A model generated the notes under the pieces. That model worked only from the letters and a program-made list of their open reading frames with translations. It was not told the DNA's origin and ran no database searches. A stretch of DNA of 64,000 bases, taken from assembly GCA_964540055.1 (NCBI GenBank), contig CAZILC010000004.1:13745-77744 (forward strand), written 5' to 3'. The stretch is from an uncultured Gammaproteobacteria bacterium. Its GTDB lineage: Bacteria; Patescibacteriota; Microgenomatia; Levybacterales; UBA12049. The position numbers and the translations under genes were made by a program. This document shows, piece by piece, positions 1,413 to 46,026 of the stretch (positions within the stretch are counted from its first letter, which is position 1; each line of letters begins with the position of its first letter).

Positions 1413-3077
1413 ATGCAAATAACCATCCATTCACTTTTTAAAACAATACTAAAATTATTCCGGCATCATGGTTTACTTATAATTCTCATAGCCTTTCTTG
1501 TTCTTTATATAGTGGTCCAACTACGTGTCATTGAGTGGGGAATTCCAAGTCAATCAGTTGCTTTCCCTCATGCATTAGATGAATGGCATTTCTTTATGGG
1601 TGATGCATCAATAATTAAGCATTTCACAAACAATGTATCAGGAGCTCAGAGAGGTCCAATGTTTTTCTTAACGACATCGACACTTTATCTTGGGTTTTTT
1701 GTTTTACTGCATGTAATTCATCCATCTCTTCTTTCAGATCGTTTTTCTCCCACAGCTCTAACGGAACTCAATCATATATTTCTCATCCTACGCTCTTTCT
1801 CTCTAATTTTTAGCATTCTGACTCTAATACTTATGTATATTGTTAGTAAACGTCAGTTACGGATAAACCCACTTCTTACGGTAGTACTTCTAGGAACTAT
1901 ACCGCTGTGGGCAGTATGGAGCGACATTTACAAATATGAGATCGCCAATGTATTCTGGATAACAGCAAGCATTTATCTGCTTCTTACATATAAAAGTACC
2001 CCTAAACGACTTATATATTGCTTAGGTGGCGTTACAATTGCTTTAGCCATAGCTACGAAAGTAAGCTCGACACCGCTTCTCCCACTCTACATTGTTGCTT
2101 TTTTTCTCTTTACGCGTAAGCCATTAAAAAACATTAAAACACTTTTGGCAGGATTGCTTATTTCCATTCTTACCTTTGCGGTATTTGGTATCCCTGATGT
2201 TATTTTCCTTAGAACAAATTGGGGTGATTATATCTCGTCTGGCTTTGGCGCAACACCTAACGGCAATTATGGCATGCCCTGGTATTTGTATCTCATTACA
2301 AAACACTATCAAATTATATTTGGTCATGCTTTCTATTTTCTTATCCTGTTAGCCGGTATCTATTACCTCTGGAAATTGCCTAAGGCATTTAGCAAACGAT
2401 CAATTAGTAAGTTTAGCGAACTTTTCTTTTTAGGTATTGGATTACTCCTCTTTTGTGTAACCCTTATACAAATTGGTATTGGCGCTTCAGGCTACCGTTT
2501 GCTTCCTACACTTCCGTTTCTAGTGCTTCTCGTTTCAATTGCGCTGAATCGTCTTTTATCGTCTCACAAGCTACTTTTTACCATTGTTGTCTGTTGTATC
2601 ATAGCTTTCCAAATGTTCGAAAGCTATGCGTGGTTATATGCTCGGTCCGGTGCCGATACACACGTCACATCTTCTATGTGGATAGTAAATCATATTCCTA
2701 AAGGGAGCAAAATTGGCATGCTGAACATACCTCTCTATCAAGCAGAACCAAATATCTTGCTTCTTGATTATTATCGAGGTCAGAACCATACTTATAAAGG
2801 CCTCTATCAATACGAAATCATAGATTACAAAACAAAAAATTTACCTGACTATATTATTATCAGTGATGCAATTGATACAAAAAAGTTTGTAATTATATCG
2901 GACAAGAACTACCTGGTAGATCGACTCAATAAAATGGGCTATAAAATTATTGCCACTTTTAAACCAGACCATACCCTGTACTATTATTTTGCTGATGAAC
3001 GCGATTATTTCTTTTCAGAGATGTTTACAAATAACGCAATCTACGTATATCGTAAAAGTACAATTAATCACAGATGA
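1413..3077 (+). CDS. Polytopic GT-C-type (ArnT/PMT-like) membrane glycosyltransferase candidate
   Basis: 554 aa with at least 10 hydrophobic spans, the acidic first-loop motif HALDEWHF and a soluble C-terminal ~100 aa. The call rests on architecture only. Confidence 0.45.
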   Translation: MQITIHSLFKTILKLFRHHGLLIILIAFLVLYIVVQLRVIEWGIPSQSVAFPHALDEWHFFMGDASIIKHFTNNVSGAQRGPMFFLTTSTLYLGFFVLLHVIHPSLLSDRFSPTALTELNHIFLILRSFSLIFSILTLILMYIVSKRQLRINPLLTVVLLGTIPLWAVWSDIYKYEIANVFWITASIYLLLTYKSTPKRLIYCLGGVTIALAIATKVSSTPLLPLYIVAFFLFTRKPLKNIKTLLAGLLISILTFAVFGIPDVIFLRTNWGDYISSGFGATPNGNYGMPWYLYLITKHYQIIFGHAFYFLILLAGIYYLWKLPKAFSKRSISKFSELFFLGIGLLLFCVTLIQIGIGASGYRLLPTLPFLVLLVSIALNRLLSSHKLLFTIVVCCIIAFQMFESYAWLYARSGADTHVTSSMWIVNHIPKGSKIGMLNIPLYQAEPNILLLDYYRGQNHTYKGLYQYEIIDYKTKNLPDYIIISDAIDTKKFVIISDKNYLVDRLNKMGYKIIATFKPDHTLYYYFADERDYFFSEMFTNNAIYVYRKSTINHR

Positions 3078-3121: not shown

Positions 3122-4906
3122 TTATATATTTTTTAGTTTTCTTGTGACTATAACTCCTATCCCTAAAACAATCGTACAAAGACTTATCATCTTGGAAACG
3201 CTCCTTACAAATGAATCCATATAAATAACCTTTACTAGGTATAACCCTTTCTTTAGAGAAAATGTTATGATTCCTACACTGTTGCTTTCTTGATCTTTAT
3301 AATTAATAGGAATCTTTTTGTTGTTCGCAAATGCCATCCATCCTGGGAAGTAAAAAGTATTTTCCCGTAACGTGACAGGTGTTTCCGCATTAATAATATA
3401 TTCATGTGAGGTTTGTAATCTTGAAAGCTCCAAAAATGTCCCTTTACCAGAAAGAATTTTCATTGGTTCTGTTGGGGGATTTGCAATTATCTTCTGACCC
3501 AGAGATTGGTCATGTTGGTATTGTTTAATAAAGAGAGGATTCCGGGGTTCAAAATATTCGGTATATACAGCATCACCCACCTTGAAAGGATCACCCGTAG
3601 CAGGGACCATATATCTGTTTTCCCAATTAAGTATAGTTGATAAAATAGTTATTATACAAATGATTACAACAACTGAGGGTTTCGTAAAATGTTTGACAAC
3701 AATACCAGCTATAGCAGCCGAGATAAAGGAAATTGGGACAAATAATCTAAACGGTCCTAAGAAAGTATAGAGAAGAGGTACATGTGTCCAGATAAAATAT
3801 GATTGCGAGAGTAGCATAAAAAAAAGTAGAGAGAAATAAAGTAGAAGTACGATGAGAAGCGGTTTCAGTTTAGGTTCAATTTTATTTTTAATGAGAATGT
3901 AGATACTAAACAATATAAGTAAGATATGTGGGTATCCAATAATCAATCGAATGTCTCCCTGATGTCCTTGGAAGAGAAAGCCGTAGGCAAACGGAGAAAT
4001 GAAATATTCCCAAATTGGAAAAAAATTTCCAAGTCCGGGGTGGATAAAAACACTACTCCACCATGTATATTTCACCTCAAGTAGTGCCGGTAACCAGTAA
4101 TAAGCTGATAGTAATATTCCATACGGTATAGATGCTAGAGGTATAAGTATGTCTTTACTATTTCTTTTCTTTTTTCGGCGCCAGAGTATGAAACAATATA
4201 GAATTGTTAGAGGCAATGAAAAGTAAGTTGTGCTCGAATGAGAAAGGAGAATAAACCAGACAGAAATTGCCTCAAGGAAAAAATACTTCAATTCTCCTCT
4301 TTCTACAAGTCGCTTCATGAAAAGAAATAGCAACGGTATAAAAACAAAAGAAGTCACCTCACCTACAGATCCTCGAAATTCAAGATTTATTAAATTAAAA
4401 GGGGCAAAGAGATAAAAAATAGCAGCAACGAATCCTGCTGCTGAACCTAATTCTTCTTTAGCCCAGAGATACATGGTAATTCCTGACACTATAAAAGTTG
4501 CCGCTAATTCGAGCTTTAAACTGGTTAAAAAGGAAAATCCAAGTAAATGGAAAAATGAGGCAAGATAATAGGGAAGTACATATTCAATTTCGTATATTGG
4601 GCATCCATACTCACCGCAAAGATTTCCTGCCCATTGGGGTATAATATTTCCTTGCTGCAGGTTGTAGTAAAAATCCATGAATTGAGCAGTATGCGGTCTA
4701 AGATCACCAGCTTGATATGTACCGGGCCTAAAGAGACTGAATGTCGGAATAACGGCAATAATTAAGAGTAAGATGAGACGACTAATGCGTTTTTTAGGAT
4801 AAACAAAACGATAGATTCCAGTCCCGAGTAGAACAATTAACGAGAAAATGACATTAAAAAGAATTATCCAATATGGACCACTTATATCATTTAAGTTTAA
4901 TTGCAT
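3122..4906 (-). CDS. YfhO / 'PTPS-related'-type GT-C-like membrane protein, paralog 1 of 3
   Basis: 594 aa. It aligns by eye over its full length with 37965..39737 and 40761..42581. Shared motifs are the GDLxxH loop, YLFAPxxLIxLxFRxSVGEV and C-terminal ENTFYFPGW. Confidence 0.55.
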   Translation of the reverse strand: MQLNLNDISGPYWIILFNVIFSLIVLLGTGIYRFVYPKKRISRLILLLIIAVIPTFSLFRPGTYQAGDLRPHTAQFMDFYYNLQQGNIIPQWAGNLCGEYGCPIYEIEYVLPYYLASFFHLLGFSFLTSLKLELAATFIVSGITMYLWAKEELGSAAGFVAAIFYLFAPFNLINLEFRGSVGEVTSFVFIPLLFLFMKRLVERGELKYFFLEAISVWFILLSHSSTTYFSLPLTILYCFILWRRKKKRNSKDILIPLASIPYGILLSAYYWLPALLEVKYTWWSSVFIHPGLGNFFPIWEYFISPFAYGFLFQGHQGDIRLIIGYPHILLILFSIYILIKNKIEPKLKPLLIVLLLYFSLLFFMLLSQSYFIWTHVPLLYTFLGPFRLFVPISFISAAIAGIVVKHFTKPSVVVIICIITILSTILNWENRYMVPATGDPFKVGDAVYTEYFEPRNPLFIKQYQHDQSLGQKIIANPPTEPMKILSGKGTFLELSRLQTSHEYIINAETPVTLRENTFYFPGWMAFANNKKIPINYKDQESNSVGIITFSLKKGLYLVKVIYMDSFVRSVSKMISLCTIVLGIGVIVTRKLKNI

Positions 4907-4928
4907 TATTTATTAGATAAATTAAGAA

Positions 4929-4949
4929 CCCTGCGGCAAGACCGCAGGG
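4929..4949 (-). terminator. GC-rich hairpin, likely an intrinsic terminator after the sugar-tailoring operon
   Basis: CCCTGCGG-caaga-CCGCAGGG is a perfect 8-bp stem with a 5-nt loop in an AT-rich spacer. On the minus strand it is followed by TTCTTAATTT. It lies between the stop at 5020 and the next start at 4906. Confidence 0.55.
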
Positions 4950-5019
4950 AAAAGGGATTATATAAATTTGATTAGCCTGTTACAATAGACATGAATATTT
5001 ATTTACGCTTTTAAAACTC

Positions 5020-5832
5020 TTATTTATAAACTTCAGTAATAAATTGAAGAGTTTGCTCAATAACTTTTTCATTTGATTCTGAGTCATCTCTTCGCATTTC
5101 AATGGATAACCACTTGTCAAAATGTAATTTTTTTAAAACGTCAACTATTTTTTTATGATCAACATCAGTTGTTCCAATCTGTTTAAGACCTCTTTCACTG
5201 ATATGGAAATGTTGAAGATAAGATAAGGCATTTGTTAGAGCCGAATTGTAATCCTCACTATTTATCGTTAACGCTCCGGAATCCAGATGTAATCTAAAAT
5301 TTGGATGATTTACATGTTTTACTAAAACGATACCTTCTCTTGTGGTGTTGATAAAATTTGTGCCATACGTTTTGGGAATTGGTTCTATGCAAAAATAGAT
5401 ATTAAATTCCTGTGCAAGTTCACCAACTTTATAAAAAAAATCTGTAGCAATATCTTGTGCTTCATCTATCCCAACTTCTCCTCTGTCTCTGTTACGAGGA
5501 GATCCAAAAATAATATCTTTGACTCCTAAGATTTCACATACTTGTAACATTTTTTCAATATATGCAAGGGTACTTTTTCTTTTTTCACTTGTTTCAAATA
5601 TAGTGAGCTCCGGATGACCAAATAATAATGATTGTATTGAAACGATAGCAATTCCCTCATTATTCCAAAACTTCCTGTAATTTCTAATTCTATCGGTAGA
5701 TTCCTTTGTGGGTTCTTTCCAAATCATAGTTGGCGCGAGTTCAATTGCTTGTAAAGAATATTTTTTTAACAGTGCTACTATTTGTTTGTCTTCATCAGTA
5801 TTCCACGCGATATTTGAGATAGCAATTTTCAT
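5020..5832 (-). CDS. Sugar phosphate isomerase/epimerase, xylose-isomerase-like TIM barrel
   Basis: 270 aa. The N-terminus MKIAISNIAWN...AIELAP and the overall pattern fit the AP_endonuc_2 / TIM-barrel family. Its start overlaps the upstream stop (TAATG). Confidence 0.55.
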   Translation of the reverse strand: MKIAISNIAWNTDEDKQIVALLKKYSLQAIELAPTMIWKEPTKESTDRIRNYRKFWNNEGIAIVSIQSLLFGHPELTIFETSEKRKSTLAYIEKMLQVCEILGVKDIIFGSPRNRDRGEVGIDEAQDIATDFFYKVGELAQEFNIYFCIEPIPKTYGTNFINTTREGIVLVKHVNHPNFRLHLDSGALTINSEDYNSALTNALSYLQHFHISERGLKQIGTTDVDHKKIVDVLKKLHFDKWLSIEMRRDDSESNEKVIEQTLQFITEVYK

Positions 5833-6815
5833 TATTCTTTAATAGTCAATAATTTTCCATTTTGCACAATTGATTGTTCTGCCAAATCAAGCAGTTGTGT
5901 TACTTTTAATCCTAATTCCAATCCCGAATAGGTTATTGCTCTATTAATCGTAATCGCTTTTGCAAATTCTATTATTTCATTTTCAAGTGAAGTTTTAGAA
6001 CTATACTTCGGGTAAGAAATTTTAGCATTTTGGTATCGTATATAAAGATCTTGATTGGGCACAATATCTTTGTAATAAATAATCTTCTTTGTGGCTTCTG
6101 CATCATACATAATACTGTCAGATTCTCCTGTAATAACAAGCTTTCTTCTTTTCTCAGGGAATATCCAATTGAGTCTAATATATGCATAGGTTTCATCTGC
6201 AAACTCGAGTTTAAGAGAAGTTGTGTCAAAAAATTTCGTTTTTGGATAGAGTAAATTTTGGCCCCATGCACTGATTGCTTTCGGATAGCTTTGCGAAATA
6301 TCCACACATAATGAAATTGCATGTGACCCAATATCCCACAATGCAGATGTGTTTTTTCTTAACAAACCATAACTCGTTCCTTCATAATCAATGTAGCGAA
6401 TTTTACCTATATTTTTTACAAGTTCTTTTGTCTTTATATAAGCCGGATCAAAAAGATATACATGTCCTACCTGTAACTTACCTTTAGATTTTTTTGGTAA
6501 TGAAAGTAATTTTTTTGCATTTTGATAATCTTCACTTAAAGGTTTTTCAACCAATACCGTAAAACCTCTTTTCAAAAATTCATAGGTAATTTCATCGTGC
6601 GTTGCATTAGGTGTTGCAATAATTACTCCATCAATATCAGAAAACTTGAATAAATATTGGTAATTTGTGGTTTTAATATAATCTCCCGGGTAAGCTGCAA
6701 AACTTTTTTCATTTGTAGCGCAGAGATATTTAATGCGGATATCAGGAAGTTTTTTAGCTGTCGCTAAATAATTCTTCCCCCAGGAACCAACGCCAATTAA
6801 AGCAAGATTAATCAT
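5832..6815 (-). CDS. Gfo/Idh/MocA-family NAD(P)-dependent sugar oxidoreductase
   Basis: The Rossmann N-terminus MINLALIGVGSWGKNY and later EKPL fit the family. I prefer the ATG at 6815, 2 nt after the upstream stop, over the ORF-track start at 6839. Confidence 0.65.
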   Translation of the reverse strand: MINLALIGVGSWGKNYLATAKKLPDIRIKYLCATNEKSFAAYPGDYIKTTNYQYLFKFSDIDGVIIATPNATHDEITYEFLKRGFTVLVEKPLSEDYQNAKKLLSLPKKSKGKLQVGHVYLFDPAYIKTKELVKNIGKIRYIDYEGTSYGLLRKNTSALWDIGSHAISLCVDISQSYPKAISAWGQNLLYPKTKFFDTTSLKLEFADETYAYIRLNWIFPEKRRKLVITGESDSIMYDAEATKKIIYYKDIVPNQDLYIRYQNAKISYPKYSSKTSLENEIIEFAKAITINRAITYSGLELGLKVTQLLDLAEQSIVQNGKLLTIKE

Positions 6816-6817
6816 AG

Positions 6818-7876
6818 TTAATTTCCTTCCCGAACCCATTCAATTGTTCTTTTTAGCCCGCTTTCCAAATTTATTTGGGGAGAATATCCTGATAATTCTT
6901 TAACTTTGGTGATATCCGGACATCTTCTCTTTGGCTCATCATTTGGATACAAATCAGGATATTTTATTCTTTTTATTTTAAGGGAGTTATTAAATAACTT
7001 ATTCATTTTTTGCGCGAGTTGATTGACAGATACTTCATCTGTATTATTTCCAATATTATAGGCCTCACCATTTTTAGATGAAAGTAAAACTTTAAGTATA
7101 TAAACTATGGCATCAGCGATATAACAATAGCTTCTTGTTTGTTCCCCCTTCTCATACACCTGTAACTCTTGACCATTTATCGAATTAAAAACAAATGAGG
7201 GAATTACTCTAAAATCGTCTTTATGGATTCCTGGACCATAGACATTAAAAGGACGAACCGTTTTTACCGGAGTCTTAAACTTATCAAAATAGACCATGCA
7301 TAAAGTTTCACCAAGTCTTTTTGATTCATCATAACATGACCTTGGACCGGTACACGATACATTTCCGTAGTAATCTTCAGTTGTTGGTACATGTTTATTA
7401 TCCGGATCGCCGTAAATTTCACTTGATGAAAAAAATAAAAAGCTTTGTACTTTTTTCTTTTTTGCATACTCCAGTAAATTTCTTGTACCATTTATCGTGA
7501 CATCAATTGTTTCAAGTGGAAATTGACGATAATATCTTGGTGAAGCAATACCGGCTGCATGCATAATGTAATCAACTTTTTTTCTAATAGCGATAGGTTG
7601 TGAAACATCTGCTTTGATAAAGGTAAAATATTTTTTGTCGAGTTCAAGTTTTGCCACACGGCTGCTTTTACCGGTGAGATAATTATCAATTGAAATTACT
7701 TTGCATTTTTGTTTGAGCTTTTTATTATTTAATTCATTGATGACTGCAAGGATATAACTGCCCAAAAATCCAGCACCACCCGAAATAAGAAGCGTTTTAC
7801 TTTCTAATTTTTTAAAATCTTTTCCTAACGCTGAAATAATTTCATCAATATCCTGAGCAATAATTTGGGATTTCAT
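6818..7876 (-). CDS. UDP-glucuronate decarboxylase (UXS / ArnA-C-terminal-like) extended SDR
   Basis: Motifs are GGAGFLGS and SSSEIYGDP...TEDYYGNVSCTGPRSCYDESKRLGE, which closely parallels the UXS signature STSEVYGDP...GPRACYDEGKR. The ATG at 7876 forms an ATGA overlap with the stop of the upstream gene. The longer 7972 start lies inside that gene. Confidence 0.7.
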   Translation of the reverse strand: MKSQIIAQDIDEIISALGKDFKKLESKTLLISGGAGFLGSYILAVINELNNKKLKQKCKVISIDNYLTGKSSRVAKLELDKKYFTFIKADVSQPIAIRKKVDYIMHAAGIASPRYYRQFPLETIDVTINGTRNLLEYAKKKKVQSFLFFSSSEIYGDPDNKHVPTTEDYYGNVSCTGPRSCYDESKRLGETLCMVYFDKFKTPVKTVRPFNVYGPGIHKDDFRVIPSFVFNSINGQELQVYEKGEQTRSYCYIADAIVYILKVLLSSKNGEAYNIGNNTDEVSVNQLAQKMNKLFNNSLKIKRIKYPDLYPNDEPKRRCPDITKVKELSGYSPQINLESGLKRTIEWVREGN

Positions 7877-9123
7877 TTTTTGATTTTTGGTCGTGGGACC
7901 GGTACAATAAATTTTCCTCCTTTTTTTGAGAAGCTCTGATTCTTTGCAATAATTGAATCGGCAAAATTCCAAGCCAATATCAAAAGATAATCAGCTTTGT
8001 CATTACTAAAAGTCGCGAAATCTTTGACAGGTATTCTTTTCCCGGGGGAATAAAGTCCTTGTTTCCACGGACTATCATCAACGATATACTCAAGCGTCTC
8101 TCGACCGATATTGAAATAATTTAGAAGCGTATTCCCTTTTGCCGGTGCACCATACCCGACAATTTTTCTTCCTGATTTTTTCAATTTATATAAAAGGTTC
8201 AAAAGAAGTATTTTATTTTTTTCTATCTCTTTGGCATAATCGGTATATGTACTTATCTTATTAAGTTTACTTGCTTTTTCCTTAGTAATAAATTTTTTAA
8301 CAGTTGGTCGAACTTTCACATCACTTTCTTTTCTTGCAATATATACTCGTATACTGCCCCCGTGTACCGAAACTTTCTCTACATCGACAACATGCATTTC
8401 AAACCTGTCAAAGATTCGTTGTAATGTCTCAACGCGCCAGTAAGACATATGTTCATGATAAATCAAATCAAAATATCTTTTTTGAATAAAATCAATAAGA
8501 TATGGTGCTTCAATCATAAATACACCATTTTTACCAAGCAGCATTTTAACTGAAAGAATTATTTCATCCAGATCATCAATGTGAGCAAAAACATTGGTTG
8601 CCGTAATTAAGTCTGCTAAGCCATATTTCTGTTTTATTTGCTTTGCAACTTTTCTGTTCATAAACTCTGCAATTGTGTCAATTCCAATGTTCTGTGCAAC
8701 AGTAGCAATCTTTTTTGCAGGCTCTACTCCCAAAACCCTGATCTTTTTTTCTTTAAATGGTTTAAGAAGTATTCCGTCATTGCTACCAATATCAATTACT
8801 AATGATTCATTGTTCAATTGAAATTGTTTTTCAGCTTTGTCTGCAAATTGGATAAAATGATCAATAAAAACTTGCGATGTTGAAGAAACATACACATAGT
8901 TGGAGAATAAAAGCTCCGAAGATATGCTATGACCTAATTGGAGAAAAGTACACGTATTACAAAAATTTACTTCAAGCGGATAATATTTTTCATCTAATTC
9001 AACCTGTTTTTCCGTTAAAAAAGCATTAGCAAGAGGTGTCGATCCAAGTATGATGACCGTTGTGAGATTGGTGTTCAGACATACTCGGCAGCTTTTCCTT
9101 TTATAAATTTGAGGCTGTATCAT
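7873..9123 (-). CDS. NDP-ketosugar C-methyltransferase (Zn-ribbon + class I SAM MTase + C-methyltransferase C-domain), paralog 1 of 3
   Basis: It has an N-terminal CxxC...CxxC (CRVC...CNTC) plus VIDIGSNDG, TATNVFAH and YHEHMSY. This is the TylCIII/NovU-type architecture. Confidence 0.7.
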   Translation of the reverse strand: MIQPQIYKRKSCRVCLNTNLTTVIILGSTPLANAFLTEKQVELDEKYYPLEVNFCNTCTFLQLGHSISSELLFSNYVYVSSTSQVFIDHFIQFADKAEKQFQLNNESLVIDIGSNDGILLKPFKEKKIRVLGVEPAKKIATVAQNIGIDTIAEFMNRKVAKQIKQKYGLADLITATNVFAHIDDLDEIILSVKMLLGKNGVFMIEAPYLIDFIQKRYFDLIYHEHMSYWRVETLQRIFDRFEMHVVDVEKVSVHGGSIRVYIARKESDVKVRPTVKKFITKEKASKLNKISTYTDYAKEIEKNKILLLNLLYKLKKSGRKIVGYGAPAKGNTLLNYFNIGRETLEYIVDDSPWKQGLYSPGKRIPVKDFATFSNDKADYLLILAWNFADSIIAKNQSFSKKGGKFIVPVPRPKIKK

Positions 9124-9497
9124 ACAATCTTAATTCTGATAGTATCTTCTTCATATTTGTCCATGCTCCGTTCTTCTGTTGTTATAGCTATAAAAATAGA
9201 ATCTTGAGTAAATTCCATTGCATGAATTTCTCCGGGGGGTGTATACACAATTTCTCCTTTATGAACAACAACTTTTTTCGGCTTCTTTTTTTCATCGCTA
9301 GTGTAATAGTAGTTCATTCCCCCTTCAAGCATATAAGAATAATGTGCATCTTTTTTGTGATAATGATTTGCCCGTATAGCACCTTTTTTGCAGGTAATAA
9401 GAACAGCGCTGTTGAAAGATGTATCTCCTTCAATTAAATGGTACATTTTGCCTCTGGCATCGGTAAAAAAGGGTTTTATTTTTTTAACAGTTGGCAT
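9120..9497 (-). CDS. Cupin-fold sugar 3,4-ketoisomerase / WxcM-FdtA-like protein
   Basis: 125 aa with FTDARGKMYHL and RANHYHKK motifs. It has an ATGA overlap with the C-methyltransferase. Confidence 0.5.
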   Translation of the reverse strand: MPTVKKIKPFFTDARGKMYHLIEGDTSFNSAVLITCKKGAIRANHYHKKDAHYSYMLEGGMNYYYTSDEKKKPKKVVVHKGEIVYTPPGEIHAMEFTQDSIFIAITTEERSMDKYEEDTIRIKIV

Positions 9498-9690
9498 TCA
9501 GTTTTTAAGGATAACAGAAGCATGTTCTATCGTCAATAGTGATTATTCCAAATGTTTATTTTCTGCAATTACAGCAATATTACCAGCTGTATGATAATTG
9601 GTAATGCATTGATTCGGGCACTTATTTCGAGTTCAAATAACGCACCGAGCGTGATCGTATAGCCTCATCCACCATTTCTACTGGATAATT

Positions 9691-11811
9691 TTATTTCATG
9701 AATTTTTTTAGCATAGTCCAAAAAGAATCATAAAATATTAGTCCTATCATTATACAAACTGCTATGATTTGAAACGCTATACTCCATGATAAATAGTTTG
9801 GATGATAAATTAATGTTATGTCATTTTTACCTTTTTGAAGTTTAAAAGTTGTGAATCCAAAAGCTGCTTGGGATGTGGATTTTGAATATCCGTTTATATA
9901 AAGTTTCCAGTCAGGAGTGTACGTGCTACTCCAAATTAATTGTTGATTTACTTTTCTAGAGTTAACAGTTGCCGATATGGAATTAGGTTCAAATTGCGTA
10001 ATTTTTATTGTTTTTGATAATACTGCAATTGGTTTCTGATTAGTGTCGGGAAAATAAAAAATGTAATGTGTTAGATAAAGGAACTCCTTCTCCCCTAAAG
10101 TCATTCGGAGATGATGCATAGATGGCGCGCTTAATACTGAACGTTCCAAAGAAGACGTAGGAATTTTGGTAATCTGAGAGTTAACTGAGTTTGCTCTGAT
10201 ATTTGATTTGTAGGTAAAATTGTATCGTGCGTTTTTATTTAATTGTGCTACAAAGCTTTTTGCATCCGTATTTATAAAACTTGCCGCCCTATCACGGTAC
10301 GATAAATAATGAAATGAATTCGGAATATATTCGGTAAGACCTACAAAGACAAACAAAATAACAATAAACTTTTTGTCAAACTTTTTAATAGATTTATAAA
10401 CCAAAAAACCATATGAGGTAATAAATATGAATGTCAATAAAAAGATCAATTGTAAAGTGAAAAAATTGTAGGGATGAGGTGATGATTTAACAATTAACAA
10501 AATTATTGAAACTGTCAATAAAACCAATATTATAATTTGTGCTAGTAAAAGCTTTTTAAGCTCTTTTTTATCGAATTGTTTATATAATATCCCAAGACCG
10601 AAGCAAGTTAAGGTTATCATAAAAAATTCAACAAGTACCAAATACCAACCATGCCATCGTGAAAACTGTAAAAATGGCAAGAACTTTGTAGCAAAAAATC
10701 CGGTAGCATAATTACTATCTAAACTTATCGCAAATATAAAAATACTAAAAAAAGCCAAAAGAAGCGTTTGACTAAGATATTTTTTATGAAAGAGCGAATA
10801 AAGAAGCAAACAAAGATTAAAAATTCCTATGTAAATCATATAGGTATTACTTGGTGAAGGAATAATAGCAAACCAAGGAATAAATGAAGGAAAATTATTA
10901 ACAAAAAATAGGGTAAAAATTTCTTTCATATGAGCTGCACCTGAAAAAGGGCTATAAGGAACCCAACGAAGAGAATTTAAAGATAATTTTGTAAATTCCC
11001 ACAACTGCAACCACTCCAAATTTGAGATTCCGATAAAAAGTAAAATTGCCAGAAAAACAGGAACTGACATTTTAACAAGATAGATAAATCTTTTGGAATA
11101 TTTTCCTTGTAATAAAACAAAAAAATGTTCCGAATAAACGAATAGGAAAATTATTGGTAAAAATAAAATGTTCAATCCCAAATACCCTGTCGAAAAAATA
11201 ATTAGTAAAAAAAGCGCGAACAAACCAATATGTCTTTTTGAACCCCCAAGTATTAGTTTTAGCGAATAGGCGAGAAACGGAATCATACTCATTGTTGTCA
11301 GTGGATTTTCTTCAGGAACCGTGGTCACAATCATAGGACAAATACTGAAGCAAAACGCTCCATAGAGAGCAATCCATCTGTTTACATACATTTTAAGCCA
11401 ATAAAACATTCCTAAAAAGCACAGTATTTGTACTATGAAAACGTCAATGGTATATATAGTCATTGTATAGTTACCGAAAAAACTTGAAAAAAGAACTAGT
11501 GGAGAAATGTTATAAAAACTAACATTAAACGAATCAGGCATTCCGTTAAATCTCCATTGATCCCATAATGGATAAATTCCTAAACGAAATGCATTACTTG
11601 TGATAAATTTGTTCGGATAATCATAAACAAGTGAATCTCCAAAAGTAATATGATTACTAGAGGTGCCATAATAAGAATAGAAAATGACAAAAGAAAATCC
11701 AAGCAATAGAATAAACATTAGATAAAAAATGATATTTCCGAAGCGATTTTTTTTATTTTTATTCATTAAAACACAAAAATATTTACCATCGATATTTATG
11801 TTATCATTCAA
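9691..11811 (-). CDS. YfhO-like GT-C membrane protein
   Basis: 706 aa and highly polytopic, with an FGDSLVYDYP...YPLWDQWRFNGMP loop and a C-terminal YTPDWKLYINGY beta-domain plus a final TM. The listed start is TTG; an in-frame ATG lies at 11766. Confidence 0.55.
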   Translation of the reverse strand: MNDNINIDGKYFCVLMNKNKKNRFGNIIFYLMFILLLGFSFVIFYSYYGTSSNHITFGDSLVYDYPNKFITSNAFRLGIYPLWDQWRFNGMPDSFNVSFYNISPLVLFSSFFGNYTMTIYTIDVFIVQILCFLGMFYWLKMYVNRWIALYGAFCFSICPMIVTTVPEENPLTTMSMIPFLAYSLKLILGGSKRHIGLFALFLLIIFSTGYLGLNILFLPIIFLFVYSEHFFVLLQGKYSKRFIYLVKMSVPVFLAILLFIGISNLEWLQLWEFTKLSLNSLRWVPYSPFSGAAHMKEIFTLFFVNNFPSFIPWFAIIPSPSNTYMIYIGIFNLCLLLYSLFHKKYLSQTLLLAFFSIFIFAISLDSNYATGFFATKFLPFLQFSRWHGWYLVLVEFFMITLTCFGLGILYKQFDKKELKKLLLAQIIILVLLTVSIILLIVKSSPHPYNFFTLQLIFLLTFIFITSYGFLVYKSIKKFDKKFIVILFVFVGLTEYIPNSFHYLSYRDRAASFINTDAKSFVAQLNKNARYNFTYKSNIRANSVNSQITKIPTSSLERSVLSAPSMHHLRMTLGEKEFLYLTHYIFYFPDTNQKPIAVLSKTIKITQFEPNSISATVNSRKVNQQLIWSSTYTPDWKLYINGYSKSTSQAAFGFTTFKLQKGKNDITLIYHPNYLSWSIAFQIIAVCIMIGLIFYDSFWTMLKKFMK

Positions 11812-11886: not shown

Positions 11887-12951
11887 TTAGAAAGAAGAAG
11901 CCATTTTTATCCCAAATTCAATGCGACCTCGTAATATTTCTCGGTTTTTATGATGATATATACGCGCAACAGCTTTCGCAAGAGAAAGACGAAGGTAATA
12001 ATACCAATACCTTTGCCAAAAATTCTTTGGGAGTTTTTTATTTTGACAATACCCTTCAAAAAGAGCGTCAAACCAGGACTGATTCCCATAAGCACCGCTC
12101 CCGAAAAAAGCGAGGTCATAAATAAAATCACCTGATAATGCATCTCCCCAATCGATAAATACTATTTCCTTATTTCTTACGAATATATTATGATTAGCGA
12201 GATCGCCATGAAGTAATACAGGCTCTATTTTTTTTAATAAAAAGCTTTGTTTGGTAAGAATATCCTTTATTATCTTTCTCTCCTTCACGGAAATTACATT
12301 TTGTTTCTCACAGAATTGCAAATGTGAATCAAGATTGCAAAAAATAAATTGTTCCCAGCTTTCATATGCTCCTGTCAAAAATGTTTTATTTACTTTGAGA
12401 AGATAGGGACCGTATTTTTTTCTTTTTATCTGATGGATTTTTGCAAGTAATTTCCCTGCATTTTGATGAAATTCTTTAGGAATTTTTTTTTGTAATGAAA
12501 TCGTATATAGGGTATTACCATACTGATATTCACTTATTTCATAATCTGTTGGAATTACTTTTCTTGATACATCAACAAAAAGAATATTTTTTCGCGGAAT
12601 ATTTTTTGTTTCGAAAAGTTCATCAATTTGTTTTTCGATAAAAAACTGAAACTCTTTATGTATCCGGGGAAAACTATTAAAACGGACTACATGTGTTACA
12701 TTATTATTATCAGTTACGAAATATACTTTGTGAAGACTCGTATTTGATACCTGTTTAATTGTTCTCGGTTCTCTACCAAAATAAACCTTATAAAGTTTTT
12801 GTATATTCTTTATTGAAATTTCTATTGGGGAATTATGCCTTATTAAACGTGGAAAGTCAGTGGTAGTAATAAAGAGTGATTTTCTAGAATTTTCAAATTC
12901 CAGTATATCTTCTTTATAATCACGCAACACCTTAGAAATTGTCATAACCAA
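11887..12951 (-). CDS. APH/choline-kinase-fold small-molecule (sugar?) kinase
   Basis: LLHGDLANHNIFV matches the HGDxxxxN catalytic loop and FIDWGDA is the DxG-like metal-binding motif. Confidence 0.6.
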   Translation of the reverse strand: MVMTISKVLRDYKEDILEFENSRKSLFITTTDFPRLIRHNSPIEISIKNIQKLYKVYFGREPRTIKQVSNTSLHKVYFVTDNNNVTHVVRFNSFPRIHKEFQFFIEKQIDELFETKNIPRKNILFVDVSRKVIPTDYEISEYQYGNTLYTISLQKKIPKEFHQNAGKLLAKIHQIKRKKYGPYLLKVNKTFLTGAYESWEQFIFCNLDSHLQFCEKQNVISVKERKIIKDILTKQSFLLKKIEPVLLHGDLANHNIFVRNKEIVFIDWGDALSGDFIYDLAFFGSGAYGNQSWFDALFEGYCQNKKLPKNFWQRYWYYYLRLSLAKAVARIYHHKNREILRGRIEFGIKMASSF

Positions 12952-13858
12952 GTTGTTGGCTAATTACTCGTGTATACATTTTAATTTCTGCATATTCCTG
13001 TTTTGTTAATTCTTTACTTGTTTCTTTATTTTCGTGACTTGTAGGTGTTTGAATTGTTCCCCAAGGTGTTGTAAAAGTAAGTCTTTTTCCATTCCATGAA
13101 CGATACGCGAGGCTGTCAGAATAGGTAATTCCGAGTTTTTTAACAAGAGGTAGAAAAAAATTCTCTTTTTTTGCAACGAGGTCTTCAAAAGTTACAAGAT
13201 GAAAATTTTTAGGATATTTTTTTGCAAAAATAAGCGCGTAGTATTGTACAATACTCCATGTAAGAGCATATCTTTTAAGAGAATAAGGAACCGGACGTCT
13301 TTTTGTCTCAGCATATGCGGAATAAGGATTACGAACAATATGGACAATATGCGCTTGCGGAAAATCCGCAAAAATCTTATCAGCATCGACACCAATGATA
13401 GGGCTATAACCCATATAGACTTTTTCCCTACCGCTACGGTTATAATCTTTCCAGGCTTCAAAAGTGGAAATAAAAAAAGATTCGATGATATTTTCTCGTG
13501 TTCTTGGTGACTTTTTAAGTAACTGTAAAAAAATATTTTTACGATCACTATCTGTTAATTTCATTTCTGCGTCTTTAAATTTACTTGCAAGAGGTGTTTT
13601 AATATGTCTTTTGAGTTCTTCGTCGATAATATTTTCGTAATCATTTTCAAATGTATCATTGAGAGAAAATTCAGGCCAACGGTATTTGACAGGAAAACTA
13701 CTTTTCAAATAATCATTAACAAATGGTGTCCCTAACTGAGACTCGAAAGGATATACAAATAATTGTGGGTGACCATCAAAAAAACGATGTATTGTGTTTC
13801 CTCCATTCTCATACATCGCTGAGATCATGATAAATTTGAATGGTAATTTGTTCAACAT
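12932..13858 (-). CDS. Sulfotransferase-family protein (putative)
   Basis: 308 aa and soluble. HIVHIVRNPYSAY resembles the 3'-phosphate-binding RDPxD-type motif, and there is an N-terminal P-loop-like segment SAMYENGGNTIHR. The assignment is moderate only. Confidence 0.4.
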   Translation of the reverse strand: MLNKLPFKFIMISAMYENGGNTIHRFFDGHPQLFVYPFESQLGTPFVNDYLKSSFPVKYRWPEFSLNDTFENDYENIIDEELKRHIKTPLASKFKDAEMKLTDSDRKNIFLQLLKKSPRTRENIIESFFISTFEAWKDYNRSGREKVYMGYSPIIGVDADKIFADFPQAHIVHIVRNPYSAYAETKRRPVPYSLKRYALTWSIVQYYALIFAKKYPKNFHLVTFEDLVAKKENFFLPLVKKLGITYSDSLAYRSWNGKRLTFTTPWGTIQTPTSHENKETSKELTKQEYAEIKMYTRVISQQLGYDNF

Positions 13859-13890: not shown

Positions 13891-14586
13891 TTAGTGAAAA
13901 GGCCTAAATCGAAAAATAATCATATATTTAAGCATTTCGAAAATATTTTTTATTGTAGTTGATGAAACACCAGTAGATCTTTTACGTGAAGTAATAGGGA
14001 TTTCAATTATTTTTATTTTTCCTCTAATTTTAAGGAGCAATTCTAAATCAAAACTAACATTTGGTGAAATAAAAGATACTGAAGAGATAACATCTGAAGG
14101 GAGTATTTTTGGCGTACCATTGATATCTCTATAGCGAATGTTAAAAAGTATAAAGGCAAGATTATTATAGAAATTTGAATTGATTTTTCTGATAAGATTT
14201 TCTCGTGTAATGCGTTTCGTTTTAACCAAAACATTTTTTTTTGTGGATGCCAAACGATACATCTTGGGAATAATTGCAGGATCAATTTGATTATCTGAGA
14301 CGGTATAACAAATATATTTTCCTTTCGCATGCCTAATTCCTTTTGCTACTGCTTTTCCCCAGCCTTTCTCAGAGGTATACAGGTAATAATTTTTGTAAAC
14401 TTTTATTAGTTTTTTAAGCACTTCAAAACTTTTATCTGTAGAGCCGTTTTCAATACACAAAACCTCATAAGAGATGGTTGTCTTTGACAGGTAATGATGG
14501 ATATCATGGACAACCTTTTGGATTACTTGTTCTTCATTGTGGACAGGAACAATAATTGATAAGTCAGGTAATGTATTTCTAGACAT
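13891..14586 (-). CDS. Short GT2 glycosyltransferase (DPM1/ArnC/GtrB-like polyprenyl-phosphate sugar synthase candidate)
   Basis: 231 aa with LSIIVPVHNEE, ENGSTD and VSDN (DxD-like). There is no C-terminal TM. Confidence 0.6.
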   Translation of the reverse strand: MSRNTLPDLSIIVPVHNEEQVIQKVVHDIHHYLSKTTISYEVLCIENGSTDKSFEVLKKLIKVYKNYYLYTSEKGWGKAVAKGIRHAKGKYICYTVSDNQIDPAIIPKMYRLASTKKNVLVKTKRITRENLIRKINSNFYNNLAFILFNIRYRDINGTPKILPSDVISSVSFISPNVSFDLELLLKIRGKIKIIEIPITSRKRSTGVSSTTIKNIFEMLKYMIIFRFRPFH

Positions 14587-14821
14587 GTGATTTGTATTAA
14601 TCCATTGCCATTATACATACTGCTCAAAAATATTGCTATTCTTTCGCACAATGATTCCCAACAATAACCATCAGCAATCTCTTCCGTCCTGTTTTGATGT
14701 AAGTCCAATCACCTTAGTTAGTACAATGGGACGGTAATTTACCGGCCACACTAGGTGGAATTAGAATAAATATAGATTGTATTGCTCAAATAAGCATTAT
14801 ATAATAGCAAGCATTGTGAGT

Positions 14822-15775
14822 ATGTCTACAAAAAGCAAAGGACAGGTTTTTATAACCGGTGCAAGCGGTTTTGTCGGAGCAAATCTTACAAGAGCTTTAA
14901 TAAAAAAAAATTACGCAACGCATATTCTCACAAAATCAAAAATTTTCCCATGGAGATTACAAGGTCTTGAAAATAAAATTAGCAATCATATTGGAGATAT
15001 AACTGATTTTTCCTCAGTAAAGAAGACCTTAACAAGCGTTAAACCTGATTATATTATCCATCTTGCAGTCTACGGTGCCTATCACTTTCAAACCGAATTG
15101 GATAAAATTGTAAATGTTAATATTGTCGGTGTAAGAAATCTTCTTGATGCGTCACGTGATATTCCCTATAAGTGTTTTATTAATACTGGAAGCTCATCGG
15201 AATATGGTATTAAAAATGCTCCGATGAAAGAAAATGATTTTTGTGACCCGATTAGTTATTATGCAGCCACCAAACTCGGTGCAACACATATTGGTAAAGT
15301 ATTTGCTCTCATGAATAACAAGCCGGTAGTAACTTTTCGTTTATTTTCAGTGTATGGGCCTTATGAAGCCCCAACAAGACTTGTACCTGTAATGATGAAA
15401 TCGTTAATCACGAGACAAACTATTAATCTCTCTCCTGGAAAACAAAGACGTGATTTTATTTATGTTGAGGATGTTTGTGATGCGTATCTTAAAGCATTAA
15501 CAGTAGGTAAAAAAATCACAGGGGAGATTTTAAACATAGGAACAGGAAGAGAATATACAAATGAAGAAGTCGTCAAAGCACTTTTTGCGGTTACCGGACA
15601 AAAAACAAAGATTGCTAAAGGAGCATATCCCAAAAGACCCTGGGAAGCATTACATTGGAAAGCAAGTATATCCCATACGAAGGAACTATTAGGTTGGACT
15701 CCTAAAGTTACTCTTGACAAAGGCTTGCAAGGAACATATTCTTGGTTTGAAAAAAATGTCCATCTATATCAATAA
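14822..15775 (+). CDS. NAD-dependent nucleotide-sugar epimerase/dehydratase (extended SDR)
   Basis: VFITGASGFVGANL and YYAATK (YxxxK) fit the family. I prefer the ATG at 14822 over the TTG at 14777. Confidence 0.7.
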   Translation: MSTKSKGQVFITGASGFVGANLTRALIKKNYATHILTKSKIFPWRLQGLENKISNHIGDITDFSSVKKTLTSVKPDYIIHLAVYGAYHFQTELDKIVNVNIVGVRNLLDASRDIPYKCFINTGSSSEYGIKNAPMKENDFCDPISYYAATKLGATHIGKVFALMNNKPVVTFRLFSVYGPYEAPTRLVPVMMKSLITRQTINLSPGKQRRDFIYVEDVCDAYLKALTVGKKITGEILNIGTGREYTNEEVVKALFAVTGQKTKIAKGAYPKRPWEALHWKASISHTKELLGWTPKVTLDKGLQGTYSWFEKNVHLYQ

Positions 15776-15777
15776 AA

Positions 15778-16506
15778 ATGTCGAAATTTTCCCTTAAAAA
15801 GTTAACAAAAGAGCAAAAAAAGTTAAGAAAAAGAATCCTTGAAGTAAGTTATGAACAAAAACTTTCTCATATAGGATCTTGTCTCAGTGTCATCGATATT
15901 ATTGCAGCTATTTATAAAATAAAAAAACCTACAGAGAAATTTATTTTATCTAATGGTCATGCCGGAGTTGCCTGGTATATTATTTTGGAAAAATATAAAA
16001 TTATCGATAGTTCCCAGTTAAAAACATTGGGTGTTCATCCCGACAGAAATCCTCTGATTGATATCCATGTTTCAACAGGAAGTTTGGGCCAAGGATTCCC
16101 CATTGCACTTGGCATGGCTCTTGCCAATCGTCATAAAAACGTCTACTGCATGCTATCAGATGGTGAAAGTACCGAAGGAAGTATCTGGGAGACCCTCAGA
16201 ATTATTCAAGAAAATAACGTACTTAATTTAAAAACAGTGATAAATGTTAATGGCTGGTCAGCTTATGCTAAAGTAGCTATTCCTCCTCTGGTAAAACGAT
16301 TTAAAGGTTTTGATTTTAATGTAGATAAAATTGACGGTCATGACATAAAAAAAATTGAACAAGCATTGAAAAAGAAAAATACAAAACCAACAATAATTTT
16401 TGCATATACACAAGTTGAACAATTTTCTTTTCTCAAAGGTTTGGATGCACATTATTATGTCATGAATCAAGACGACTTTGAAAAAGCGCTAAAAAAATTA
16501 ACATGA
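15778..16506 (+). CDS. Transketolase-like ThDP enzyme, N-terminal (PP-binding) subunit
   Basis: 242 aa with SHIGSCLS, SNGHAG and LSDGESTEGSIWE (GDG-type ThDP/Mg motif). It has an ATGA overlap with the next ORF. Confidence 0.65.
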   Translation: MSKFSLKKLTKEQKKLRKRILEVSYEQKLSHIGSCLSVIDIIAAIYKIKKPTEKFILSNGHAGVAWYIILEKYKIIDSSQLKTLGVHPDRNPLIDIHVSTGSLGQGFPIALGMALANRHKNVYCMLSDGESTEGSIWETLRIIQENNVLNLKTVINVNGWSAYAKVAIPPLVKRFKGFDFNVDKIDGHDIKKIEQALKKKNTKPTIIFAYTQVEQFSFLKGLDAHYYVMNQDDFEKALKKLT

Positions 16507-43998: not shown

Positions 43999-44014
43999 AC
44001 CACAAAATCTCCGG

Positions 44015-44033
44015 ATCCTGGACAAGCCAGGAT
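44015..44033 (+). terminator. Hairpin ATCCTGG-acaag-CCAGGAT, a possible terminator overlapping the next promoter
   Basis: It has a 7-bp perfect stem and starts 17 nt after the stop at 43998. The downstream T-tract is weak. Confidence 0.3.
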
Positions 44034-44047: not shown

Positions 44048-44053
44048 AAAAGT

Positions 44054-45980: not shown

Positions 45981-46026
45981 AAAGTCTATTGTACTATATA
46001 AGTCAATAACAAGTACAACTCAACAA

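Follow-up and report, generated by a model that had tools for sequence, protein, structure and literature searches.

The closest described counterparts of the gene set reported here are the deoxythymidine diphosphate (dTDP)-sugar 3-C-methyl pathways to mycarose, tetronitrose and kijanose, represented by TylC3, MtmC, TcaB9 and KijD1, in which a short-chain dehydrogenase/reductase (SDR) makes a 4-keto sugar linked to a nucleoside diphosphate (NDP), a cupin and a C-methyltransferase tailor it, and a reductase finishes the product. Cell-surface C-methyl sugars are also made through a dehydratase, a TylC3-type methyltransferase and a reductase by the CDP-cereose/cillose operon of Bacillus cereus and by the virenose genes of Coxiella; these sugars are 6-deoxyhexoses on cytidine diphosphate (CDP) or guanosine diphosphate (GDP) scaffolds, and they are made without a decarboxylase. 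Here we report the analysis of an operon in a 64,000-nt stretch of contig CAZILC010000004.1 (hereafter the window, by which the whole stretch is meant), whose five genes, all on the minus strand, encode a small cupin, a methyltransferase of the TylC3 type, an SDR resembling the UDP-glucuronic acid (UDP-GlcA) decarboxylase UXS, a Gfo/Idh/MocA-type oxidoreductase (Gfo) and a xylose-isomerase-like TIM barrel. We propose, with a probability of roughly 0.6, that the methyltransferase receives an NDP-4-keto-pentose from the SDR and that the route would lead to a C-methyl pentose.

A second group of related systems uses the NDP-4-keto-pentose itself. In the Arn pathway (ArnA-ArnB-ArnC-ArnT), which leads to 4-amino-4-deoxy-L-arabinose (Ara4N) on lipid A, the tailored pentose is put on polyprenyl phosphate by a family 2 glycosyltransferase (GT2) and is then transferred by a GT-C enzyme. 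Its NDP-glucuronic acid (NDP-GlcA) decarboxylase, ArnA, releases UDP-4-keto-pentose as a branch point, and in the EvdS6 and CalS9 routes UXS-type enzymes release NDP-4-keto-pentose for tailoring (PMC10338323). The same compound is the proposed precursor of eurekanate, a branched sugar of everninomicin D, and the 2023 EvdS6 paper described everninomicin D as unique in having a pentose-derived sugar with an acetyl branch (PMC10338323).

The window operon resembles each of these systems in part. With the dTDP-sugar pathways it shares the architecture of the methyltransferase (248-318 bits) and the overall logic, whereas its keto-sugar supplier is a UXS-type decarboxylase, so that the substrate would be a pentose lacking C6; its reductase belongs to the Gfo/Idh/MocA family, theirs being an SDR 4-ketoreductase, and it is found in a cell-envelope glycan island instead of an antibiotic gene cluster. 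It is flanked by GT2 and GT-C genes like those of the Arn pathway, but its SDR is UXS-like and not ArnA-like, and its tailoring reaction would be C-methylation in place of transamination, the unit containing no gene for an aminotransferase or formyltransferase. Compared with the EvdS6 and calicheamicin (CalS8/CalS9) routes, where a two-carbon unit derived from thiamine diphosphate (ThDP) or an amino group is introduced, the branch would here be a methyl group derived from S-adenosylmethionine (SAM). Full-text searches of the literature on NDP-pentose C-methyltransferases, C-methyl-xylose and sugar C-methyltransferases of the candidate phyla radiation (CPR) found no precedent for pairing a UXS-type decarboxylase with a TylC3-type C-methyltransferase, in keeping with a preliminary description of the window that had taken the route to be uncharacterised. 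The enzymes are ordinary members or close relatives of known families; it is their combination that appears to be new, and the single steps are chemically unsurprising.

Predicted identities of the decarboxylase and the tailoring enzymes

Among solved structures, the SDR is best matched by human UXS1 (hUXS1; 199 bits, 36% identity over 325 residues), and its scores against RmlB (~85 bits) and against ArnA and UAXS (~63 bits) are far lower, which places it nearer UXS than any of these three. The placement uses these PDB bit scores and an internal neighbour-joining (NJ) tree, a rough one built from BLOSUM62 distances and carrying no support values. The protein has the Rossmann motif GxxGxxG in the form GGAGFLG, and the motif GPRSCYDESKRLGE, previously cited as a UDP-GlcA decarboxylase signature, is present. 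Its catalytic triad S151, Y182 and K186 is invariant in the family alignment A1 and is aligned with T118, Y147 and K151 of hUXS1; in the wider comparison S151, S152, E153, Y182, K186, N211 and R317/R318 correspond to T118, S119, E120, Y147, K151, N176 and R277 of the human enzyme. Ser119, Glu120 and Arg277 are UXS-specific and missing from 4-epimerases, and the E120-R277 pair closes the active site of hUXS1 and keeps the 4-keto intermediate from escaping (PMC3438964). The UXS-specific residues are all there in the window SDR as S152, E153 and R317/R318, and both the catalytic and the UXS-specific positions are kept in 50-51 of the 51 relatives encoded in similar gene cassettes. On these comparisons, the SDR is predicted to be an NDP-glucuronic acid decarboxylase. 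A 4,6-dehydratase or a 4-epimerase was considered and rejected, since the protein reads SSE and has no T-D-E dehydratase motif, and since it keeps the UXS Glu/Arg pair; nor does the window enzyme group with dTDP-glucose 4,6-dehydratases, the outcome that the preliminary description had named as contrary to its proposal.

In the methyltransferase, an N-terminal four-cysteine zinc ribbon (Cys pairs CRVC and CNTC) is followed by a class I SAM domain and by the C-terminal domain of its family, and the protein matches the Pfam models Methyltransf_13 (PF08421, 72 bits), Methyltransf_23 (PF13489, 57 bits) and Methyltransf_14 (PF08484, 192 bits), all above cut-off. In the PDB search it scored 318 bits against the D-mycarose 3-C-methyltransferase 4rv9, 261 bits against 5t64 and 248 bits against TcaB9, with KijD1, like TcaB9, at about 250-260 bits. 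Its YHEH stretch aligns with YHEH in 4rv9 and YDEH in 5t64, and its FAHID stretch with FAHID and MCHIP, respectively, in these two structures; work on TcaB9 reportedly identified Y-x-E-H and the His of F/C-x-H-I as active-site residues. Ten solved relatives were found, all of them sugar C-methyltransferases, and the earlier recognition of a Zn-ribbon C-methyltransferase is well founded. By analogy with the solved relatives the target carbon may be C3. It is highly improbable that the protein is an O- or N-methyltransferase or a non-sugar enzyme and that the operon makes an ordinary methylated xylose. Nothing specific points that way beyond the generic annotation of relatives as "class I SAM-dependent methyltransferase", against which stand the full three-domain architecture, the 318-bit match to a solved sugar C-methyltransferase with aligned catalytic stretches, and the uniform function of the ten solved relatives.

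Two further Zn-ribbon C-methyltransferases of the TylC3 type are encoded in the same island (Table 1), and the three enzymes are 35-42% identical to one another. The second of the two additional genes (30536-31804) is flanked by genes for an extended SDR with the motif SSSEVY and for an RmlD-like reductase. As the island has three C-methyltransferases, the organism may make up to three different C-methyl sugars.

The cupin is a candidate epimerase or 3,4-ketoisomerase, as judged from its remote relatives. Alone, the window protein matches only generic cupin models in Pfam. An alignment of 32 family members (A2) has invariant D13, R15, G16, R42, N44, H45 and H92 and two motifs, an N-terminal D-x-R-G and then R-x-N-H-Y-H; the latter reads RANHYH in the window protein, H45 being invariant and H47 nearly so, and is a generic cupin metal motif that does not discriminate between families. 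The A2 profile matched the RmlC-like structure 2b9u (30.6 bits), QdtA 4zu7 (27.5 bits) and FdtA 2pa7 (26.2 bits) in the PDB, and also Cap5F. Among the 32 relatives, 20 matched the Pfam FdtA model PF05523 (best E-value 2e-11) and 31 the CapF-type cupin model Polysacc_synt_C. These related families, RmlC, FdtA/QdtA and CapF, all act on nucleotide-linked 4-keto sugars. The preliminary label "FdtA/WxcM-like" holds insofar as the family is related to FdtA, RmlC and CapF; as a statement of membership it was rejected, because the window protein lies below the FdtA threshold (no match to the Pfam model at E <= 0.1) and the family is about equally near to RmlC, FdtA/QdtA and CapF.

The fourth gene product was correctly placed in the Gfo/Idh/MocA family, as its Pfam match (Table 1) and its EKP motif indicate; the motif residues E90, K91 and P92, together with H165, are invariant in the family alignment A3. 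We propose that it is the keto-reductase that would finish the sugar, at C4 or at C3. The A3 profile matched the solved structures 3c1a (326 bits), 7bvj (136 bits), which we take to be a UDP-N-acetylglucosamine (UDP-GlcNAc) 3-dehydrogenase, and the sugar 3-ketoreductase 3rbv (75 bits). An archaeal UDP-GlcNAc 3-dehydrogenase model from NCBIfam was matched by 31 of 32 Gfo relatives, far under its cut-off; the window protein scored 105 bits against a cut-off of 450 and is thus related to this group without being a member. The best match, 3c1a, is a solved "putative oxidoreductase" without an assigned function. At 326 bits it evidently belongs to the Gfo family of the cassette, so that a structure already exists for this step.

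The fold assigned to the last gene product, a TIM-barrel isomerase, agrees with its Pfam match (Table 1), and the protein is probably an accessory metal-dependent epimerase or isomerase acting beside a carbonyl group. The NCBIfam models for IolO (80 bits) and psicose 3-epimerase (63 bits) were not reached, each having a cut-off of 300 bits. Residues E150, D184, H210 and E245, which by analogy are presumably metal ligands, are invariant in the family alignment A4. The family occurs mainly in another widespread and apparently uncharacterised module (loci L085-L089 and L092-L169), where translational coupling joins a short SDR of 256-272 residues to the TIM barrel at 69 of the 76 informative loci. 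Usually found nearby are a DAO-type FAD oxidoreductase, GT2 enzymes, a small membrane protein of the GtrA/EamA type and a PMT_2 GT-C protein. This module looks like a sugar-editing system, perhaps one acting on lipid-linked sugars.

Conservation of the cassette and exchange of its central enzyme

A scan anchored on the SDR, with one genome per species, recovered 80 loci whose SDR relatives are 42-57% identical to the window enzyme; 69 of them had room on both sides and were used for neighbour counts. The 80 loci are spread over CPR phyla, DPANN archaea, Omnitrophota, Elusimicrobia, many Alphaproteobacteria, two single-cell genomes of Prochlorococcus, a Mycobacterium and a Sorangium. The best named relatives of both the SDR and the methyltransferase belong to Levy-, Gottesman- and Daviesbacteria, which marks the source of the window as CPR-like. 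A methyltransferase gene stands directly upstream of the SDR gene, on the same strand, in 43 of the 69 loci, a Gfo gene directly downstream in 33, and all four core genes follow the order of the window in 23, with cassette loci spanning CPR, DPANN, Omnitrophota, Elusimicrobia, Alphaproteobacteria (marine and freshwater) and Prochlorococcus. The TIM barrel was present in none of the 69 SDR-anchored loci. The conserved core consists of the cupin, methyltransferase, SDR and Gfo genes, to which a TIM barrel is only rarely added. The preliminary picture of a five-gene operon is accordingly right for the genes and junctions of the window itself, whereas a conserved five-gene unit was rejected, the TIM barrel being missing from these loci and its family residing mostly in the different module described above.

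Several further observations tie the SDR to the methyltransferase. In the NJ tree, the SDRs linked to methyltransferase and Gfo genes form one clade that includes the window SDR; those adjoining a dehydrogenase gene without a methyltransferase gene form a separate clade, which branches nearer hUXS1. The window SDR thus differs from UXS in belonging to a clade tied to the methyltransferase and Gfo instead of a dehydrogenase, and it would be expected to pass on its keto intermediate. Two metagenomic proteins, P0070 (435 aa) and P0103 (531 aa), join the C-terminus of the methyltransferase in frame to the SDR; both are 58% identical to the window SDR and their sequences differ from each other, and both are encoded on short contigs in which a sequencing error is possible. 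Furthermore, 37 of the 120 best methyltransferase relatives apparently share a contig with one of the 120 best SDR relatives, equal-sized contigs serving as the proxy.

Cupin-methyltransferase-SDR-Gfo cassettes were also seen in marine single-cell genomes, at Prochlorococcus sp. AG-355-A09 locus L065 (6292-11614) and at locus L068. In L065 Gfo is directly followed by a TuaD-like UDP-glucose dehydrogenase gene, so that five genes in a compact arrangement cover the uronic acid supply as well.

The strongest support for the keto-pentose idea came from a less biased sample, namely a TIM-anchored search, which yielded four other five-gene cassettes. Two of them have a UXS-type enzyme in the central slot: L083, with identities to the window proteins of 60% (slot enzyme), 68% (cupin), 64% (methyltransferase), 46% (Gfo) and 50% (TIM barrel), and L090, with 61, 57, 57, 52 and 54% in the same order. 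The other two, L084 (23, 46, 44, 55 and 55%) and L091 (25, 44, 42, 50 and 54%), have the order cupin-methyltransferase-X-Gfo-TIM, in which X is an RmlB-type dTDP-glucose 4,6-dehydratase (383 bits on TIGR01181, cut-off 365; 313 bits to solved RmlB). Gfo and the TIM barrel are equally near to those of the window in the dehydratase cassettes (50-55%) and in the UXS-type cassettes (46-54%), whereas the cupin and methyltransferase track the slot type, with 42-46% identity beside the dehydratase and 57-68% beside the UXS-type enzyme. Because the sole product of a 4,6-dehydratase is a released 4-keto sugar, the slot would supply a 4-keto sugar to the methyltransferase. By their sequences, the L084 and L091 cassettes are the textbook C-methyl-6-deoxyhexose pathway and look like ordinary members of the dTDP-sugar 3-C-methyl group. 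The simplest reading of the window version would be that this pathway is run on the product of the decarboxylase, NDP-4-keto-pentose.

This exchange also argues against the explanation that the genes share a glycan and not a pathway, in which the SDR would make plain UDP-xylose while the cupin, methyltransferase and Gfo tailored a 4-keto-6-deoxyhexose supplied by a dehydratase encoded elsewhere. There are grounds for considering it: the three C-methyltransferases of the island are accompanied by no fewer than three additional extended SDRs, genes for xylose and for C-methyl sugars occur together in mycobacterial lipooligosaccharide loci, and of the 31 cassette loci flanked by 6 kb or more on both sides, 16 have another SDR in the flanks. 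We nevertheless find it quite unlikely. The flanks of the other 15 loci contain no other extended SDR, so the UXS-type enzyme is the sole local candidate for making the keto sugar there. The ATGA overlaps, the fusions, the clade of methyltransferase-linked SDRs and the tracking of the slot type by the cupin and methyltransferase would be hard to explain if two unrelated pathways were involved, and the dehydratase of L084 and L091 occupies exactly the place of the UXS-type enzyme.

Proposed route, nucleotide scaffold and competing explanations

In the proposed route, the SDR, a decarboxylase by homology, would oxidise C4 with NAD+, decarboxylate the sugar and pass on the NDP-4-keto-pentose unreduced, the release being our inference. 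The methyltransferase, assigned to its family by homology, would form an enolate beside the keto group and move a methyl group onto it from SAM, at C3 if the analogy holds. The cupin, as its remote homology suggests, may epimerise or 3,4-ketoisomerise the keto sugar, and Gfo would use NAD(P)H to reduce the keto group that is left. The TIM barrel, a lineage-specific extra, would work together with the reductase, probably isomerising or epimerising beside the carbonyl. From the gene context, the product would then probably be loaded onto polyprenyl phosphate by a GT2 enzyme and transferred outside by a flanking GT-C protein in an Arn-like manner. The substrate is most likely NDP-glucuronic acid in the form of UDP-GlcA.

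Several points weigh against this route. The Glu/Arg pair, which stops the 4-keto intermediate of hUXS1 from escaping, is retained in the SDR, and for this reason release of the keto sugar by the SDR is not to be assumed; EvdS6, CalS9 and ArnA do release it, and according to the EvdS6 study the product outcome cannot be read from structure (PMC10338323). The nearest characterised relatives of Gfo work at C3, not at C4. If C3 is methylated, the cupin and the TIM barrel are left without an obvious role, because there is then no stereocentre beside the carbonyl, C5 being a CH2 group. The nucleotide-sugar dehydrogenase of the window is not UDP-glucose-dehydrogenase-like, and no sugar-1-phosphate nucleotidyltransferase was found among ~57 window open reading frames (ORFs) searched with Pfam and 3 ORFs searched with NCBIfam only. 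In addition, the two further C-methyltransferases and the other SDRs of the island could serve other pathways, and the exchange of the slot enzyme was seen on two RmlB-type contigs only. In an alternative arrangement that uses every enzyme, the cupin would be a 3,4-ketoisomerase, the methyl group would be added at C4 or C2, and Gfo would be a 3-ketoreductase; this arrangement fits the C3 specificity of the nearest characterised Gfo relatives and has no precedent in the methyltransferase family.

The retained Glu/Arg lid would also suit a complete UDP-xylose synthase that does not let go of its intermediate, with Gfo re-oxidising UDP-xylose at C3 in the manner of UDP-GlcNAc 3-dehydrogenases, the methyltransferase acting at C2 or C4 and the keto group being reduced again, a course that would still end in a C-methyl pentose, though not by way of a released 4-keto-pentose. 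It agrees with the C3 specificity of the best characterised Gfo relatives (31 of 32 model matches; 7bvj at 136 and 3rbv at 75 bits) and would give the cupin and the TIM barrel stereocentres to act on. We consider this course unlikely, since the Gfo matches to C3 enzymes are far under cut-off (105 against 450 bits), the solved relatives of the methyltransferase and the relatives of the cupin all act on 4-keto sugars, and the fusions of methyltransferase and SDR point to direct hand-over; moreover, in L084 and L091 this slot is occupied by a 4,6-dehydratase, and the sugar it delivers, being a C4-keto sugar already, needs no re-oxidation. Whether the 4-keto intermediate is released or a keto group is introduced anew by re-oxidation, a C-methyl pentose is the likely product of the operon.

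The proposed route starts from a uronic acid, and the preliminary description had suggested that this could come, as UDP-GlcA, from a UDP-sugar 6-dehydrogenase encoded at some distance from the operon. The protein is a nucleotide-sugar dehydrogenase by TIGR03026 (Table 1) and may supply the uronic acid, but the more specific models were not reached, the scores being 228 bits for UDP-N-acetylmannosamine (UDP-ManNAc) dehydrogenase (cut-off 750), 151 for AglM (cut-off 670) and 132 for TuaD (cut-off 700). In the PDB it scored 187 bits against Cap5O and 148 against CalS8, which we take to be a thymidine diphosphate (TDP)-glucose dehydrogenase, and at most 96 against UDP-glucose dehydrogenases. Being nearer to UDP-ManNAc dehydrogenases and CalS8, it was rejected as a UDP-glucose dehydrogenase that supplies UDP-GlcA. 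In other cassettes, true UDP-glucose dehydrogenases (TuaD/AglM-like) are encoded directly after Gfo, in Prochlorococcus (L065) and Mycobacterium sp. (L029), or beside or near the cassette (L058 and L009); a TviB-like UDP-GlcNAc dehydrogenase is found near the cassette of L082.

The earlier preference for a UDP over a dTDP scaffold is not established, given that TDP-GlcA decarboxylases such as CalS9 are known (PMC10338323), that the window dehydrogenase is CalS8-like and that sister cassettes contain an RmlB-type enzyme. The same chemistry could run on dTDP-GlcA or on a UDP-N-acetylhexosaminuronic acid and yield a dTDP-linked or a 2-acetamido C-methyl pentose. The nearness of the window dehydrogenase to UDP-ManNAc dehydrogenases and CalS8, the TviB-like enzyme near L082, the passing of the dTDP-glucose dehydratase cut-off by the sister cassettes' RmlB-type enzyme and the existence of TDP-GlcA decarboxylases all speak for this variant. 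We regard it as rather unlikely in view of the true UDP-glucose dehydrogenases flanking the cassette in Prochlorococcus, Mycobacterium sp. and others and of the SDR being nearest to UXS enzymes that use UDP-GlcA; the divergence of the cupin and methyltransferase of the RmlB-type cassettes from those of the window (42-46% identity) also fits a different substrate. Of the preliminary proposal as a whole, a C-methyl pentose made by a UXS-type decarboxylase and a TylCIII-type methyltransferase is backed by comparative genomics, through gene order, the SDR clade, the fusions and the exchanged slot, and its UDP scaffold is a part that is only probable.

Operon signals, the glycan island and biological meaning

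The five genes and their coordinates given in the preliminary description were confirmed from the ORF list and by direct reading of the sequence (Table 1), and so were the junctions, which read GT-ATGA between cupin and methyltransferase, AAAA-ATGA between methyltransferase and SDR, TAA-ct-ATG with its 2-nt gap between SDR and Gfo, and TAATG between Gfo and the TIM barrel. The longest ORF of the SDR opens at TTG 7972, and the ATG at 7876 gives a protein of 352 aa, in agreement with relatives of ~353 aa; that of Gfo opens at 6839, and the ATG at 6815, preceded by the Shine-Dalgarno-like stretch GGAAGGAAA, gives 327 aa, the relatives having 322-326 aa. The start codons chosen earlier (7876 and 6815) are therefore correct, as the protein lengths fit those of the relatives and the longest ORFs would overlap the preceding genes.

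Table 1. Features of the operon, the surrounding island and the distant dehydrogenase gene, in window coordinates.
Feature	Position	Strand	Evidence
GT-C-like protein	1413-3077		
PTPS_related GT-C-like membrane protein, directly downstream of the operon	3122-4906	-	PF10131, 43 bits
Terminator-like hairpin	4929-4949	-	9-bp stem, 3-nt loop, T-rich tail
Xylose-isomerase-like TIM barrel, ketose-3-epimerase/IolO type	5020-5832	-	PF01261, 96 bits
Gfo/Idh/MocA NAD(P) oxidoreductase	5832-6815	-	PF01408, 67 bits
UXS-type extended SDR	6818-7876	-	Similarity to human UXS1
SAM-dependent sugar C-methyltransferase, TylC3/TcaB9/MtmC type	7873-9123	-	PF08421, PF13489, PF08484
Small cupin, 125 aa	9120-9497	-	Cupin_2, 34 bits
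Promoter-like site TTGACG, 17 nt, TATCCT, with TG	9508-9536	-	Consensus scan
YfhO-like GT-C membrane glycosyltransferase, directly upstream of the operon	9691-11811	-	PF09586, 51 bits
APH-type kinase-like protein	11887-12951	-	
Sulfotransferase	12932-13858	-	
GT2, polyprenyl-phosphate sugar synthase kind	13891-14586	-	PF00535, 78 bits
Extended SDR	14777-15775	+	
Transketolase-like ThDP enzyme, N half	15778-16506	+	
Transketolase-like ThDP enzyme, C half	16503-17003	+	
Nucleotide-sugar 6-dehydrogenase, UDP-ManNAc-dehydrogenase/CalS8-like	22052-23314	+	TIGR03026, 325 bits (cut-off 190)
Small polyprenyl-phosphate-type GT2	24005-24712		
Zn-ribbon TylC3-type C-methyltransferase	24709-25965	-	
GT-C-like protein	26069-27625		
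RmlD-like reductase	29668-30546		
Zn-ribbon TylC3-type C-methyltransferase	30536-31804	-	
Extended SDR	31829-32794		SSSEVY motif
Small polyprenyl-phosphate-type GT2	32890-33606		
GT-C-like protein	35670-37232		
GT-C-like protein	37965-39737		
GT-C-like protein	40761-42581		

The hairpin described as closing the unit is present between the stop codon of the TIM-barrel gene (5020) and the start of the next gene (4906). It reads CCCTGCGGTCTTGCCGCAGGG followed by TTCTTAATTT, forms nine pairs, seven of them G-C, and has a predicted energy of ~-17 kcal/mol in a 51-nt context. No other terminator-like match occurs in 4700-9900, where shuffled sequences give 2.5 +/- 1.8, and, since the match count does not exceed that of the shuffles, it is the position of the hairpin that suggests a terminator role. 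The promoter-like site lies just 5' of the cupin start codon, in the 193-nt gap between the unit and the upstream YfhO-like gene; with 33 such matches in the region against 25 +/- 5 in shuffles, it points only weakly to a promoter.

The first 43 kb of the window form a glycan-biosynthesis island of 28-35% G+C, and the housekeeping genes beyond it (44000-64000), encoding IleRS, FtsW, FtsZ, FtsA, ParB, signal peptidase and transaldolase, have 38-45% G+C. Variable or horizontally acquired surface-polysaccharide loci typically show such a drop, which here amounts to about 10 points. The island encodes seven GT-C-like proteins (of the PMT_2, PTPS_related and YfhO families) and three small GT2 enzymes of the polyprenyl-phosphate type, an unusually dense set for extracytoplasmic glycosylation within 43 kb. 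In three-component systems such as ArnC/ArnT and CsbB/YfhO, a sugar passes from its nucleotide onto a lipid carrier and, once flipped, is transferred outside the membrane, and by analogy the GT2 and GT-C set of the island may form systems of this kind. The GT2 upstream of the YfhO-like gene (NCBIfam: PgfS 58 bits and ArnC 45 bits, both far under cut-off) could load the sugar onto the lipid carrier, the YfhO-like protein is a candidate transferase for the finished sugar, and the PTPS_related protein may also be associated with the operon.

Between this GT2 gene and the YfhO-like gene, the overlapping ORFs for a kinase-like protein and a sulfotransferase hint at phosphorylation or sulfation of the same glycan. 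On the other side of the GT2 gene, an extended SDR gene is followed by two overlapping ORFs for the halves of a split transketolase-like ThDP enzyme, an arrangement that recalls enzymes by which keto sugars are given a two-carbon branch; only one of 86 related loci (L078) has a similar pair.

We tentatively suggest, at somewhat less than even odds for the statement as a whole, that the cassette is a widespread route to a C-methyl pentose unreported from any glycan, that its UXS-type enzyme is a dedicated supplier of 4-keto-pentose, that the sugar is exposed on the cell envelope by way of polyprenyl phosphate and GT-C enzymes, and that the methyl group may end up on an unexpected carbon, either C4 or C2 if keto-isomerisation comes first, or C5. 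Methylation at C5 may rebuild a 6-deoxyhexose skeleton without a dehydratase.

If the proposal is true, it would add a new branch point to nucleotide-sugar metabolism. So far, NDP-4-keto-pentose is transaminated, in the routes to Ara4N and calicheamicin, or is proposed to be C-acetylated on the way to eurekanate; in the window operon the modification would be C-methylation, carried out by a TylC3-type enzyme. The cassette also gives a context to the solved structure 3c1a, and the pairing of RmlB-type with UXS-type cassettes is a natural experiment in the adaptation of tailoring enzymes to a substrate lacking C6. The product would be an undescribed surface sugar on very abundant and poorly known organisms, among them CPR bacteria, DPANN archaea and Prochlorococcus, whose surface glycans probably mediate host attachment and phage recognition.

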